A stretch of 47,548 nt of DNA from Parcubacteria group bacterium (lineage in GTDB: Bacteria; Patescibacteriota; Minisyncoccia; Phycocordibacterales; 21-14-all-47-15). The position numbers and the translations under genes are program-made. Positions 8,774-12,606 of the stretch are shown one piece after another (position 1 is the first letter of the stretch; every line of letters starts with the position of its first letter). The notes below the pieces were generated by a model that was not told the origin of the DNA, did no database searches, and saw only the letters and a list, made by a program, of their open reading frames with translations. The stretch is from contig JACOYO010000007.1 in assembly GCA_016181845.1 (NCBI GenBank), positions 1 to 47,548 of the forward strand, written 5' to 3'.

Positions 8774-10540
8774 ATGGCAAAAAAATTTTTAATAATTCCT
8801 CTCTCGTTTCTCGCTTTTTTCTCATATGCTTTTTCGGCAGACGCGGCGGTCATTTCTCTTTTGCCGCAAGCAAGAACGTTTGGTGTCGGGCAAGAATTCA
8901 ATGTTGATATAAAAATTGACACCGAAGAAACGCATATCAACGCAGGTCAAGCAACAGTTCGATTCCCAATTGGGATGCTTGAATTGATGAGTGTTGATAA
9001 ATCAGGCTCTGCTTTTGGTTTTTGGGTTGAGGAGCCGAAAATCTCAAACGAAGACGGTACGCTTATGTTTACCGGTGGTACGACCAGCGGCGTATCTGGC
9101 GGTTCTTTGCAAATTTTGAAAATGAAATTTAAGGCGAAGGACGCGGGTCTTGTAGATATTCTCTTGCAAGACGCGGCGGTTACGGCTTCTGACGGCAAAG
9201 GCACGAATGTTTTGTCCGCGCTCAAGGGGACGAGTGTTTCAGTGGGAACGCAAGTTATTCCTCCAGTTACTCCTACGATTTCTGTGCCGTCTACTGCCAG
9301 GCAGGTCATTCCCGTCGTTTCAGTTCCGGCACCAGAGCCGCAAAAAGTAGTCCGTGAGGCGATTGTGGCGCAAAAATTACCTGGGAAACCGCTGCTTCGA
9401 GTTCCTTTGTATGGTGATTCAACCCGTTGGTATAATCACCAAGGCGAAGCGGTCGTCTTTTGGGATGTCCCGCCGGATGCGGTTACAGTTGCGGTAGCTG
9501 TTGACCGTAGCCCGCGAACGATTCCGCAAAAACCTGAAGCGGAATTATTTACCGGAAAAAATCTTGGAGTATTGAAAGAAGGCGTGTCGTACGTGCATGT
9601 ACGGTTTAGAAATAATGTCGGATGGGGAGAGACAGCTCACTTCAAAATTGCCATTGATGTTACGCCGCCGTTGCCGTTTGAGATTAACGACTCGCTCACG
9701 AGCGATAATCCGACGCCAAAAATTCAGTATGAGGCGCACGACGCTTTATCTGGAGTTTCCCACACCGTTCTTTTTCTTGATGGCAAAGAATTTTTAAGGT
9801 CAACTTCAACATCGGTGGTATTGCCGCCACAGCCGCCGGGTCCTCACACTATTCTTGCCAGGGTGTTTGATTTTTCAGGGAATAGCGCCGAGAGCGAAAT
9901 GAAGTTTGAAATTCTGCCGCTCCAGACACCAGTGGTTGATTTTATATCGGCTTCAATAACCGTAGGCGAGCCATTCTTTGCCTCGGGTACCTCAATCCCA
10001 AATGCTTTTATTGATATGCGCGTATTAGATGCGTCAGAGCGGGAGGTGATTGCTGATAGCGCCGCAAGTGATGCACGGGGGAATTGGAAAATTTCCATCA
10101 CCAAACCTCTGCCAGCCGGAATGTATACCGTCTCTATTGTCGCGCGCGATGAGCGCGGGGCAAGGAGTTTCCCTGTGGATGGAGTAAAGCCGCTCAAAGT
10201 GCATCCGAAGACCGTGTTGTCGTTCGGAGGATTTATTGACTTTGGCTGGCTTGAAATTTTGATTATGTTGGTATTGCTTATTACATCGGGGGCTGGGTTC
10301 TTCGCGTCGCGGTATGTTTTAAAAAACAAAACGCGCGAGGCGTACAAAACGATTGTCGGCAGAGACGTGAATAAATTCGCAGACATGCTCTTTTCTTTTT
10401 TGAAAGAGTTTGAGGATGCGGGCGGGTTAAACGAAGATAGCCGTCGTGTCAAACAAAAAGCGCTCATTGAACAAGCAAAGGAAACTGTGGCAAAAATGAA
10501 AAAATATATCTGCGAAGAAGTAAACAAATTGGGAAAGTAA
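8774..10540 (+). CDS. Cohesin-domain surface protein with Ig-like domains and C-terminal membrane anchor
   Basis: Signal peptide; VGQEFNVDIKID...INAGQATVRF...FWVEEP...VTASDGKGTNVL cohesin-like domain; Pro-rich linker; C-terminal TM helix. Confidence 0.75.
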   Translation: MAKKFLIIPLSFLAFFSYAFSADAAVISLLPQARTFGVGQEFNVDIKIDTEETHINAGQATVRFPIGMLELMSVDKSGSAFGFWVEEPKISNEDGTLMFTGGTTSGVSGGSLQILKMKFKAKDAGLVDILLQDAAVTASDGKGTNVLSALKGTSVSVGTQVIPPVTPTISVPSTARQVIPVVSVPAPEPQKVVREAIVAQKLPGKPLLRVPLYGDSTRWYNHQGEAVVFWDVPPDAVTVAVAVDRSPRTIPQKPEAELFTGKNLGVLKEGVSYVHVRFRNNVGWGETAHFKIAIDVTPPLPFEINDSLTSDNPTPKIQYEAHDALSGVSHTVLFLDGKEFLRSTSTSVVLPPQPPGPHTILARVFDFSGNSAESEMKFEILPLQTPVVDFISASITVGEPFFASGTSIPNAFIDMRVLDASEREVIADSAASDARGNWKISITKPLPAGMYTVSIVARDERGARSFPVDGVKPLKVHPKTVLSFGGFIDFGWLEILIMLVLLITSGAGFFASRYVLKNKTREAYKTIVGRDVNKFADMLFSFLKEFEDAGGLNEDSRRVKQKALIEQAKETVAKMKKYICEEVNKLGK

Positions 10541-10545
10541 ATCAG

Positions 10546-10584
10546 AAAAACCCAGTGTGGAGTCGGTCTCCGCATGGGGTTTTT
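10546..10584 (+). terminator. Intrinsic terminator
   Basis: aaaaaccc...ggggttttt hairpin directly after the stop codon. Confidence 0.6.
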
Positions 10585-10618
10585 GTTTTCCTCGTCTTTT
10601 TCCCGTATACTATTTTGT

Positions 10619-11002
10619 ATGGAAAAAGATTTTGACAAATGGAATGGAGCAAAGAAAAAAACAAATGCTGAACCAACACGCTTCTATACTGTCCGTGAGA
10701 TATGGTGGTGTCGTCTTGGTGTAAATATCGGTTCTGAACAGGATGGAAATGGCCAAGCATTTCTTCGTCCAGTTGTAATAGTTCGTGCGTTTGGACCAGA
10801 AACATGCGTTGTTATTCCTCTCACGACGTCAGAGCGGAAACATCCACTCCGTATTCCTGTGGGGACGATACAAGAAAAGAACGCGTCAGCACTGCTTTCA
10901 CAGGTGCGTGTGATTGACACCCGCCGTCTTGTTGAAAAGGTAGGATTCCTTGATAATGGAATATTCGTGCAATTAAGAAAAGCCGTCAGAAATTTGTTCT
11001 GA
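10619..11002 (+). CDS. PemK/MazF-family endoribonuclease toxin-like protein 1
   Basis: REIWWCRLGVNIGSEQDG...RPVVIV...IPLTT...SQVRVIDTRRL. Start reassigned to ATG 10619, 7 nt after TATACT. Confidence 0.88.
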   Translation: MEKDFDKWNGAKKKTNAEPTRFYTVREIWWCRLGVNIGSEQDGNGQAFLRPVVIVRAFGPETCVVIPLTTSERKHPLRIPVGTIQEKNASALLSQVRVIDTRRLVEKVGFLDNGIFVQLRKAVRNLF

Positions 11003-11056
11003 CGGCTTTTCTTTTTCTGTTCTCCCTCTTGCGAGGGTAAGGCCGAAGCCACTTGT
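10975..11056 (-). ncRNA. Candidate convergent small RNA 1 overlapping the toxin 3' end
   Basis: Minus strand reads GGC-UUCG-GCC (11041-50), CCCUC-GCAA-GAGGG (11024-37) and a 17-bp stem (10975-11013) spanning the toxin stop. Ends are inferred from the promoter and hairpin. Confidence 0.6.
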
Positions 11057-11062
11057 ATTTAT

Positions 11063-11092
11063 ATGGTATATTATGCGAGTATCGGATGTCAA
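11063..11092 (-). promoter_or_regulatory. Sigma70-like promoter for candidate sRNA 1
   Basis: Minus strand TTGACA-N18-TACCAT; same geometry as the promoter at 11785-11814. Confidence 0.55.
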
Positions 11093-11176
11093 CCATGTGT
11101 ACCAGCGCATCAAAGATTGTAAAAACAAAAAGCACATTAATTTTCCTTTGGGTGGAATTTTCGCTATACTGACGAC

Positions 11177-11308
11177 ATGACTGACAGCGTGGAGAAAAAA
11201 GGGCGTTTGCATCCGCTGACGCATGTTATCCGCCACATGGTGGGTATTTTTCGCGAGCTTGGATTTGCTGTTGCCGAGGGACCGGAAATAGTTGAGGTCA
11301 AACTTTAA
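11177..11308 (+). pseudogene. Truncated duplicate of the pheS 5' end (43 codons)
   Basis: [43 protein letters not shown]; 11201-11289 is identical to 11890-11978 (89 bp). Confidence 0.85.
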
Positions 11309-11343
11309 CAGTCATATTTGAATAAAGTAATTTGAAAAAATAC

Positions 11344-11736
11344 ATGAAAAAGGATTTTGATAATTGGCACAAAGAAAAAAGTAATTTACATCAAGAAAAA
11401 ATACGTCCATTTTTCCACGAAAGAGAAATTTGGTTCGCTTCGGTTGGAATAAATATCGGTTTTGAGCAGGATGGCAGGGGGGATCAATTTCTGCGTCCTG
11501 TTATTATCCTTAAAAAATTTAATAATGAAGTATTGTGGGGGATACCACTTACAAAAAATCAAAAGAAAGGGGAATATTATTTTCAGTTTAAGTTTTTAAG
11601 TGAGGAAAAAATGAGTACCGCCATTCTTTCTCAAATTCGTTTGATAGATTCAAAGAGACTGCAGTATAAGATTGGTGACGTGAAAGAAGATAATTTTATT
11701 GAACTAAAAAGAAAAATCATGCAATTGCTTGCATGA
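11344..11736 (+). CDS. PemK/MazF-family endoribonuclease toxin-like protein 2
   Basis: REIWFASVGINIGFEQDG...RPVIIL...IPLT...SQIRLIDSKRL. Start at ATG 11344. Confidence 0.88.
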   Translation: MKKDFDNWHKEKSNLHQEKIRPFFHEREIWFASVGINIGFEQDGRGDQFLRPVIILKKFNNEVLWGIPLTKNQKKGEYYFQFKFLSEEKMSTAILSQIRLIDSKRLQYKIGDVKEDNFIELKRKIMQLLA

Positions 11737-11780
11737 TTTTTCTTTTTACCCTCTTGCGAGGGAGGGCCGAAGCCGTTTGT
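11705..11780 (-). ncRNA. Candidate convergent small RNA 2 overlapping the toxin 3' end
   Basis: Same GGC-UUCG-GCC (11765-74) and CCCUC-GCAA-GAGGG (11749-62) hairpins, plus a 20-bp stem (11705-48) with a GCAA loop on the minus strand. Confidence 0.6.
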
Positions 11781-11784
11781 GTTT

Positions 11785-11814
11785 ATACTATATATCCCAG
11801 AGATTGAAAGTCAA
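11785..11814 (-). promoter_or_regulatory. Sigma70-like promoter for candidate sRNA 2
   Basis: Minus strand TTGACT-N18-TAGTAT (alternatively N16-TATAGT). Confidence 0.55.
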
Positions 11815-11856
11815 GCAAATTTTTATTTTACGTCTTTTTGATTTATACTGTTTTGT

Positions 11857-12606
11857 ATGGGAATGAAACAGGATACGAAGCAGGAGAAGGGGCGTTTGCA
11901 TCCGCTGACGCATGTTATCCGCCACATGGTGGGTATTTTTCGCGAGCTTGGATTTGCTGTTGCCGAGGGACCGGAAATTGAGACGGAACACTACAATTTT
12001 GACGCGCTGAACATTCCAAAAGACCATCCGGCTCGCGATATGTGGGATACGTTTTGGCTTAAGCCGCGAAACGCAGGCAAGCTTTTGCGCACCCATACCT
12101 CGCCGATGCAGATTCGGTATATGGAAACGCACAAGCCGCCGATTCGGATTATTGTGCCCGGAAAAGTGTTTCGCTATGAAGCGACAGACAGCACTCATGA
12201 AGCGCAATTTTATCAACTTGAAGGGCTTTTGATAGACAAAAACATTTCGCTTGCGCATTTGAAAGGAGTGCTTGGAAAATTTTTTGAAGGGCTTTTCGGC
12301 AAGCATACGGCAGTGCGGCTGCGCCCGAGTTATTTTCCGTTTGTTGAGCCCGGAGTGGAGGTTGATGTGTCGTGTTTTAAGTGCGCGGGGAAAGGGTGCG
12401 GACTTTGCAAGCAAAGCGGATGGATTGAAATCATGGGCGCGGGCATGGTGCATCCAAACGTTTTACGTGGGGTAGGCATAGACGAGCGGGAGTGGCAGGG
12501 ATTTGCTTTTGGCATCGGCATTGACCGCGTGGCGATGTTGAAATACGGTATAGACGACATTCGTCTTTTGTATCAGGGGGATTTGCGTTTGGTAAACCAG
12601 TTTTAG
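11857..12606 (+). CDS. pheS: Phenylalanine--tRNA ligase alpha subunit (short form lacking the N-terminal coiled coil)
   Basis: [35 protein letters not shown] and GFAFG motifs; CxxC-x3-CxxC insert. Confidence 0.97.

Follow-up and report, generated by a model that had tools for sequence, protein, structure and literature searches.

MazF/PemK toxins normally pair with protein antitoxins (type II), and the locus analysed here raises the question of how two toxins of this family are controlled when no antitoxin gene stands beside either of them. The locus occupies positions 10,619 to 11,814 of a 47,548-nucleotide (nt) stretch of DNA, referred to below as the window, which is contig C5 (JACOYO010000007.1) of the 741,763-base, 11-contig genome of a Parcubacteria group bacterium (GCA_016181845.1; 100% complete as judged by marker genes). 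The nearest named protein relatives belong to Candidatus Lloydbacteria, Kaiserbacteria and other Patescibacteria. On the minus strand downstream of each toxin gene lies a compact module that appears to encode a small RNA (sRNA), and we consider it probable, on the basis of the sequence analyses described below, that each locus is a cassette of a toxin and an RNA antitoxin in which the sRNA controls the toxin. A preliminary description of the window had proposed an RNA antitoxin of this kind; all of its computationally testable predictions were borne out, and its functional claim is retained here as a probable interpretation.

Toxin 1 (10619-11002, plus strand) is a MazF/PemK-fold protein of 127 amino acids (aa) that carries an extra N-terminal helix with the motif KDFDxWNxxKK, and toxin 2 (11344-11736, plus strand) is a second MazF/PemK-fold protein of 130 aa. 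Both match the Pfam family PF02452 (PemK_toxin; cut-off 23.1 bits), toxin 1 with 60 bits (E 3e-16) and toxin 2 with 39 bits (E 1e-9); they are 41% identical to each other (52/128), and a scan of the whole genome recovered only these two PemK-family genes. The AlphaFold2 (AF2) model of toxin 1 reached a predicted local distance difference test (pLDDT) value of 85.3 and a predicted template modelling score (pTM) of 0.79, and the top Protein Data Bank (PDB) matches found with Foldseek were all MazF proteins (E ~3e-7, template modelling (TM) scores of 0.6-0.7), among them those of B. subtilis (4mdx) and S. aureus and the M. tuberculosis proteins MazF-mt1 and -mt9.

The conservation of the protein was analysed in a sample of 401 genomes of the same class, 77 of which contain a toxin homologue, often in several copies (up to seven toxin matches in one genome, the genomes being of about 0.7 Mb); 29 toxin loci fetched from this search formed the first set for close inspection. 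PDB sequence matches to MazF/PemK proteins cover residues 27-123 only, and residues 1-25 form an N-terminal extension in which the AF2 model places the additional helix (residues 5-16). This helix is absent from the solved MazF proteins according to both sequence and fold comparison with the PDB, and its residues K3, W8 and K12 are invariant among the 29 homologues. In the same homologues P51 is invariant, R50 and T69 are nearly invariant and the SQxRxxDxxR motif is kept; the equation of R50 and T69 with the catalytic residues of solved MazF proteins rests on a loose loop alignment. With its MazF fold and the conserved R50-P51 and T69, the modelled toxin looks active. A -10-like box (TATACT; 10606-10621, plus strand), read from the sequence, lies 7 nt before the toxin 1 ATG and may act as a promoter element, and such a box is found 5-8 nt before the toxin ATG in most of the 29 loci. 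A Shine-Dalgarno site would not fit into so short a distance; the mRNAs appear to be leaderless, and the toxin is probably transcribed from a promoter of its own.

The earlier observation that no antitoxin gene accompanies the toxins held on wider inspection. No antitoxin open reading frame (ORF) is adjacent to either toxin in the ORF list of the window, and the upstream neighbours are a gene for a 588-aa surface protein (toxin 1) and a 43-aa remnant of pheS (toxin 2; PF01409). No upstream ORF is conserved across the 29 loci, whose neighbouring genes are unrelated (e.g. GAPDH-like, the C-terminal part of elongation factor G, atpA). A genome-wide search with PF04014 (MazE), which covered MazE-type antitoxins only, gave no match in this genome, whereas nine of 14 control genomes had matches above the cut-off.

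The minus-strand module downstream of each toxin

The same order of elements is found on the minus strand after both toxin genes, namely a promoter-like site, GGCUUCGGCC, a linker of 2-3 nt, CCCUCGCAAGAGGG and a long stem. The hairpin pattern GGCTTCGGCC-N2/3-CCCTCGCAAGAGGG has two matches in the window (11024-11050 and 11749-11774, both minus strand) and none in 100 shuffles; the whole 742-kb genome contains no further ones. The promoter-like sites are sigma-70-like in sequence: TTGACA-N18-TACCAT for sRNA 1 (11063-11092, minus strand) and TTGACT-N18-TAGTAT, alternatively N16-TATAGT, for sRNA 2 (11785-11814, minus strand). The ends of the predicted sRNAs were deduced from promoter spacing at the 5' side and from the terminator at the 3' side. 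Predicted sRNA 1 (10968-11056, minus strand, about 89 nt) begins with 5'-ACAAGU, followed by hairpin H1 (GGC-UUCG-GCC, 11050-11041), UUA, hairpin H2 (CCCUC-GCAA-GAGGG, 11037-11024), an A-rich spacer and the terminator. Predicted sRNA 2 (11700-11780, minus strand, about 81 nt) begins with 5'-ACAAAC, followed by H1 (11774-11765), CU, H2 (11762-11749) and the terminator. Scored with R2, a covariance model built from 33 module matches, they reach 63.2 bits (E 4e-17) and 54.1 bits (E 5e-14), respectively. Both fold as exactly three hairpins, with minimum free energies of -39.5 kcal/mol (z -6.8) for sRNA 1 and -36.7 kcal/mol (z -8.8) for sRNA 2.

The long stem is common to the toxin mRNA and the predicted sRNA, and can be read on both strands. 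At toxin 1 it is a perfect stem of 17 bp with a loop of 5 nt (10975-11013; arms 10975-10991 and 10997-11013), and at toxin 2 a perfect stem of 20 bp with a loop of 4 nt (11705-11748; arms 11705-11724 and 11729-11748), so that the arms are 100% complementary in both copies. The far arms are the last codons of the toxins and the near arms hold the stop codons (11000-11002 and 11734-11736). The segment 10975-11013 was also called as a plus-strand intrinsic terminator for the toxin 1 mRNA, and the long stems are, as predicted from their sequence, bidirectional intrinsic terminators that would serve the toxin mRNAs too. The plus strand of both modules folds well too (z -5.5 and -5.8), and folding energy therefore does not decide the strand; the RNA is assigned to the minus strand because of its tetraloops and its conserved promoter. 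H1 and H2 are identical in the two copies; the terminators are unrelated. The toxins, promoters, small hairpins and 17- and 20-bp stems were thus all found where the preliminary description had placed them.

A 122-aa antisense ORF (10684-11052, minus strand) with a GTG start just before H1 was considered and rejected as coding, being most likely spurious: the triplet before H1 is ACG in module 2, the third codon is TAG at the related locus L016, and the lengths of H2 differ among modules by non-multiples of 3.

Conservation, structure and linkage to the toxin

A first covariance model, R1, was built from an alignment (A1) of 11 same-length module copies, and it finds the module in 28 of the 29 class-sample loci; at the remaining one, L022, the module can be recognised by eye. 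Inspection of the 29 loci by eye gave on the opposite strand TTGAC-N17/18-TAnnnT, about 12 nt, a UUCG-type hairpin, a short linker and a GC-rich hairpin, the module ending in a terminator that overlaps the toxin 3' end or in a U-run. The analysis was then extended to named genomes, where 582 of 599 candidate stretches were confirmed as toxin homologues and the best 80 loci, all from Patescibacteria, were retained. R2 locates the module immediately beyond the 3' end of the toxin gene, on the other strand, in 78 of these best 80 loci, the exceptions being L089 and L097. That the module would be conserved together with homologues of the toxin had been proposed at the outset, and it is also seen from the RNA side, since 66 of 80 genome-wide R2 matches are convergent to a listed toxin and lie -6 to +189 nt beyond its 3' end. 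Within the class, R2 matches were found in 49 of the 77 toxin-bearing genomes and in one of 80 toxin-less genomes, the lone match being weak (E 0.0075); these searches applied strict filters and scored only a limited number of candidates, and the counts of genomes without a match are therefore soft. Related genomes in the module counts are not independent samples. In other classes of the phylum 13 of 26 loci have an R2 match, and of the 13 loci without one, nine show the same layout by eye, one shows nothing and three were mis-registered in the view. The H1 sequences of these classes differ (e.g. UGCC-ACUA-GGCA, CGAC-GUUA-GUCG).

Both small hairpins covary, as had been anticipated. In an alignment of 84 module matches 99.8% of 643 cells are paired and five of eight pairs are changed on both sides (68 cells); the covariation score was reached by none of 500 shuffles, slid controls were 32-68% paired, and the first module set gave the same picture. 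As these alignments were fitted to the model, an independent parse by eye is the stronger evidence: in it the H2 stems measure 5-11 bp and have many unrelated sequences, all perfectly paired, and H1 switches between GGC/GCC and GCC/GGC. Of 78 homologous modules, 70 have a promoter-like site, and in 44 of these the -10 box ends 12 nt before H1; the predicted start A is invariant in 51 same-length copies, which gives a 5' end of the form 5'-ACAnnU.

The geometry of the overlap with the toxin gene was analysed in 108 modules, of which 105 had a placeable toxin ORF and 93 a called terminator. In most of the 105, 2-15 nt separate the end of the sRNA core from the stop codon, and 88 of the 93 show an overlap of 24-38 nt between sRNA and toxin ORF (30 and 34 nt in the window). 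At the sequence level, the sRNA and the toxin mRNA share about 45 nt of perfect complementarity at their 3' ends.

The module does not correspond to an Rfam family. A permissive scan of 10400-12000 returned only chance terminator-like matches, and a scan of 20 related loci at gathering thresholds gave no match at the module. The pemK motif (RF02913), which had been singled out beforehand for comparison, was found at none of the loci, and its best scores in this genome (<=13 bits, against a gathering score of 34.8) lie elsewhere. In our literature searches no description of this RNA, or of an RNA-controlled MazF in Patescibacteria, was found; the word 'pemK' is absent from the main text of Weinberg et al. 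2017, and the motif is described in the supplement of that paper.

Relation to known systems and proposed mode of control

Full-length toxin homologues with the N-terminal FDxWNxxKK motif also occur on plasmids of Campylobacterota, in Nitratiruptor (39% identity), in Helicobacter and on pVir of C. jejuni 81-176. The solo PemK/MazF-family gene of pVir (NC_008770, 30634-31038) is 32% identical to toxin 1 over 86%, has no annotated antitoxin gene beside it, and is followed on the downstream minus strand by TTGATT-17-TATAAT and by a GC hairpin that adjoins the stop codon. At all three Campylobacterota loci the minus strand by the stop codon shows a -10-like box and two or three hairpins, the last of the CCCCG...CGGGG type and only a few nt away from the stop. 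R2 gave no meaningful match on these three loci (<=10.5 bits), and the likeness of the RNAs to those of Patescibacteria is architectural, seen by eye and by folding with modest z-scores (-2.3 to -3.5). The pVir region of about 100 nt that holds the candidate sRNA is also present on five toxin-less Campylobacter plasmids of 3.8-5.2 kb (NC_004997, NZ_CP084081, NZ_CP048773, NZ_OY754861 and NZ_CP017864), at 93% on four of them and as a shorter 91.5% match on the fifth.

The cjrA/cjpT pair of Campylobacter jejuni pVir was reportedly described by Shen et al. in 2016 (Mol Microbiol 101:909). Two publications state that pVir carries cjrA, an antisense sRNA antitoxin, and cjpT, a protein toxin, together termed type I (PMC10470494, PMC7826846), and matches to cjrA are said to occur without the toxin (PMC7826846), a remark with which the toxin-less plasmids agree. 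Because the PemK-family gene of pVir has no annotated neighbouring antitoxin and the RNA region recurs on toxin-less plasmids, we infer that this gene is cjpT, and the cjrA/cjpT pair is probably of the same family as the Patescibacteria cassettes. The toxins are homologous, including the N-terminal FDxWNxxKK; however, the RNA sequences are not alignable, the pVir RNA has neither a defined structural RNA family nor an Rfam match, and the loci described here are chromosomal in 0.7-Mb Patescibacteria whereas pVir is a plasmid of a proteobacterial-type host. The novelty of the cassettes is tempered by the fact that the Campylobacterota plasmid homologues have the same layout.

Type I systems with a 3' overlap or a shared terminator include par/Fst-RNAII of pAD1 and bsrG/SR4 and txpA/RatA of B. 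subtilis. Like them, the cassette has convergent transcription, a common bidirectional terminator and an sRNA with its own constitutive-looking promoter, all as read from DNA, and the encoding of an RNA antisense to, and overlapping with, the toxin transcript is likewise seen at the DNA level only. Unlike them, it encodes soluble MazF-fold proteins of 127 and 130 aa and not a hydrophobic peptide of fewer than 60 aa, a rule to which SymE and RalR are exceptions within type I; moreover, its overlap is short (about 45 nt) and lies wholly within a hairpin, par-like complementarity to the 5' end is absent and a conserved, structured 5' domain stands outside the overlap. With the type III systems (ToxIN, CptIN, TenpIN) it shares an endoribonuclease toxin of the wider Kid/MazF-like fold class with a (here predicted) RNA partner, but its RNA gene follows the toxin gene and converges on it instead of preceding it on the same strand, and the toxins match Pfam PemK_toxin and not the ToxN, CptN or TenpN families. 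The comparison with ToxN that had been drawn earlier breaks down on the defining repeat array, since no tandem repeat array was found in the window with Tandem Repeats Finder, the only tandem repeat being two copies of a 21-nt unit within the toxin 2 ORF. MazEF/PemIK systems (type II) have the same fold and family and the RP, (P)LT and SQxRxxDxxR motifs; the cassette differs from them in its monocistronic toxin with an extra N-terminal helix, in lacking an upstream mazE/pemI and in the absence of PF04014 from the genome. Like the Rfam pemK motif, it links a structured RNA with pemK genes, but without a covariance-model match. The cassette therefore fits neither classical type I, type II nor type III, nor the Rfam pemK motif.

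We infer transcription of the sRNA, toxicity of the proteins, neutralisation and the mode of neutralisation from sequence, and regard control of the toxin by the sRNA as probable because of the tight linkage, the fixed convergence, the conserved promoter, the covarying structure, the apparently active solo toxin and the orphan modules beside decayed toxins. Several observations weigh against this view or against a purely antisense form of it. R2 matches only 64 of the 150 toxins listed in the class sample, covering nearly all the closest relatives of the toxin and few distant ones, and the distant toxins may use diverged RNAs or something else. Among the 80 genome-wide RNA matches, 14 are not beside a listed toxin, one of them in this genome. 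In the five of the 93 modules with a called terminator that do not overlap the ORF, and in many loci of other classes, H2 itself serves as the terminator, leaving an ORF overlap of 0-10 nt; in the other classes the stop codon is found next to H2 or within its loop. In both RNAs a perfect hairpin sequesters the complementary region, and the most conserved parts of the sRNA (ACAnnU, H1, linker and H2) lie outside the overlap, which pure antisense action leaves unexplained. Pairing of the sRNA core with the 5' end of the toxin mRNA, as in par, was rejected: in 58 of 78 loci (the other 20 lacked a placeable start codon and were left out) no cognate-specific complementarity was found, with -16.4 kcal/mol for cognate and -15.6 kcal/mol for non-cognate pairs and a median cognate rank of 25 among 58. 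The precedent is also weakened in that the PemK gene of pVir is only presumed to be cjpT.

As to how the sRNA would act, antisense action at the 3' end of the toxin mRNA is our tentative preference, held at slightly less than an even chance, because of the invariant convergent overlap and because the probable relative on pVir carries the label type I. The sRNA, of about 80-90 nt, would be transcribed convergently from the sigma-70-like promoter, start at the invariant A (5'-ACAnnU), carry the UUCG and GNRA hairpins and end in the terminator whose far arm corresponds to the last 8-10 codons of the toxin. Once paired with the 3' end of the toxin mRNA, like type I RNAs with a 3' overlap, it would strip that mRNA of its protective terminator hairpin or form a double-stranded substrate for RNase III, and toxin synthesis would stay low; the conserved 5' domain would account for the stability of the sRNA and for its recognition. 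This mode and direct binding to the toxin are not mutually exclusive, and direct binding, which ranks close behind, is possible but doubtful. In it the sRNA would bind the MazF-fold toxin as a pseudo-substrate or inhibitor, in a type III-like manner, and the overlap would reflect compact gene packing. The location of the most conserved RNA elements outside the antisense overlap, the identity of H1 and H2 in two copies whose toxins are only 41% identical and whose terminators are unrelated, and the minimal ORF overlap in many loci speak for such binding, as does the N-terminal helix, which the solved MazF proteins lack and which accompanies the RNA module in Patescibacteria and Campylobacterota alike. 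Moreover, MazF proteins naturally bind single-stranded RNA (according to the titles of the structures 4mdx and 5hjz), and the persisting orphan sRNAs and the RNA on toxin-less plasmids fit an action in trans on a protein. A tentative model places the conserved, single-stranded 5'-ACAnnU and linker in the RNA groove of the toxin dimer, with further contacts from the hairpins and the N-terminal helix (K3, W8, K12). Direct binding is disfavoured by the lack of a tandem repeat array and of any sign of processing sites or pseudoknots, by the strict convergent overlap kept across phyla, which binding does not require, and by the type I label given to the published relative.

It is unlikely, though less so than control of the toxin at the protein level, that the sRNA gene is linked to the toxin without being an antitoxin, for instance as the boundary of a mobile cassette (a bidirectional terminator with an outward promoter), as an insulator against read-through or convergent transcription, or as a trans-acting regulator. 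The 14 RNA matches away from a listed toxin would suit such a role, some of them being convergent to AbiEii, DUF3800, an AAA_14/DUF4143 ATPase or atpA, and so would the arrangement of cassettes in arrays and their mobility, as in the orphan before the toxin 1 orthologue at locus L053 and the insertion of cassette 2 into the pheS duplication (see below). DnaA-box-like 9-mers (TTATCCACA, <=1 mismatch) within 55 nt upstream of the sRNA promoter may be added here; they occur in 19 of 78 modules (e.g. L005, L018, L020, L022 and L024) against 1.7% of random 55-nt windows drawn from these loci, and are absent from both window modules. A terminator, however, needs no conserved promoter, invariant start or two covarying hairpins, the linkage is very tight and to one toxin family, and at least four of 13 orphans examined are decayed cassettes; nor did a trans target stand out, as a short-word BLAST of the sRNA core against this genome for a decoy or trans target returned only the two modules and chance 10-12-mers. 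Control of the toxin by an unlinked or unrecognised protein antitoxin, or by its own N-terminal helix, with the RNA incidental, is very improbable. Protein antitoxins are the norm for this toxin family, the 25-residue extension with its conserved Trp is otherwise unexplained, and only MazE-type antitoxins were searched genome-wide; on the other hand, no neighbouring ORF is conserved in the 29 loci, an unlinked antidote for each of up to seven toxin matches in a genome of about 0.7 Mb is unlikely, and the tightly linked, covarying sRNA would be left without explanation.

The textbook example of a type II toxin, MazF/PemK owes its definition to a protein partner, and a large conserved subfamily of it is here predicted to have an RNA partner whose structure is supported by covariation and has no Rfam entry. 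If an RNA partner is indeed used, many 'orphan' MazF annotations in Patescibacteria genomes of about 0.7 Mb would be explained, and the single studied Campylobacter RNA-antitoxin pair would be placed in a much wider family; the cassette would also offer a tractable case for how an RNA replaces MazE. A bolder extension, which we put forward with considerable reserve, is a phylum-spanning MazF family without MazE, each member being held by one non-repetitive toxin-binding RNA of about 80 nt; with similar reserve, 5'-ACAnnU would be the pseudo-substrate and the two hairpins would be read by the N-terminal helix. If true, direct binding would represent a new, repeat-free class of protein-binding RNA antitoxins that links type II toxins to type III logic, and repeat-free RNA antitoxins would be common in Patescibacteria and present on Campylobacterota plasmids.

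Orphan modules, cassette mobility and the pheS duplication

Of 13 orphan modules examined, four (L035, L038, L040 and L041) lie beside decayed C-terminal fragments of toxin genes, as expected if the antidote outlives the toxin. Other orphans are convergent to AbiEii, DUF3800, AAA_14/DUF4143 ATPase, Yip1 or housekeeping genes, and the fourteenth is upstream of the toxin at L032, convergent to atpA. The neighbours of the orphans L035, L036, L037 and L040 include an AbiEii nucleotidyltransferase toxin, DUF3800, a weak HEPN_AbiU2 match and an AAA_14/DUF4143 ATPase, and the cassettes appear to sit in variable defence or toxin-antitoxin islands. The orphan of the present genome is a third module on contig C7 (77898-77941, plus strand; E 2.8e-6; locus L042, 1499-1600) with a promoter, both hairpins and a terminator. 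It has no PemK gene nearby and is convergent to a 120-aa ORF that has no Pfam match and ends in a C-terminal hydrophobic stretch.

The locus of the closest relative, L053 (85% toxin identity), is syntenic with the window and contains the surface-protein gene, an orphan module of the toxin 2 type without a toxin (1371-1435), and the cassette of the toxin 1 orthologue with its sRNA (1501-1942); the downstream gene is not pheS. Comparison of these sequences indicates that close relatives differ through gain, loss and shuffling of cassettes.

In the window, cassette 2 (11290-11881) is located between the 43-aa pheS 5' remnant (11177-11308, plus strand; PF01409, E 1.6e-4), which has its own -10 box, and the intact pheS (11857-12606). 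The first ~97 nt of pheS are duplicated, 11193-11289 being 97% identical to 11882-11978, and the intact gene has different first codons. These new first codons and a promoter-like region (11820-11881, plus strand) resemble the promoter and start of toxin 1, with 75% identity between 10582-10625 (toxin 1) and 11820-11863 (pheS). The 5' end of the essential pheS gene looks recently rebuilt, through insertion of a cassette or through recombination; that cassettes seem to move and to rebuild host genes in this way bears on the plasticity of reduced genomes. The pheS remnant and the intact pheS also show a -10-like box close before the start. Another Patescibacteria genome has a LOOT RNA (RF03000, 74 bits; L138, 2153-2270, plus strand) and two tRNAs at a distance of less than 1 kb from a toxin-sRNA cassette.

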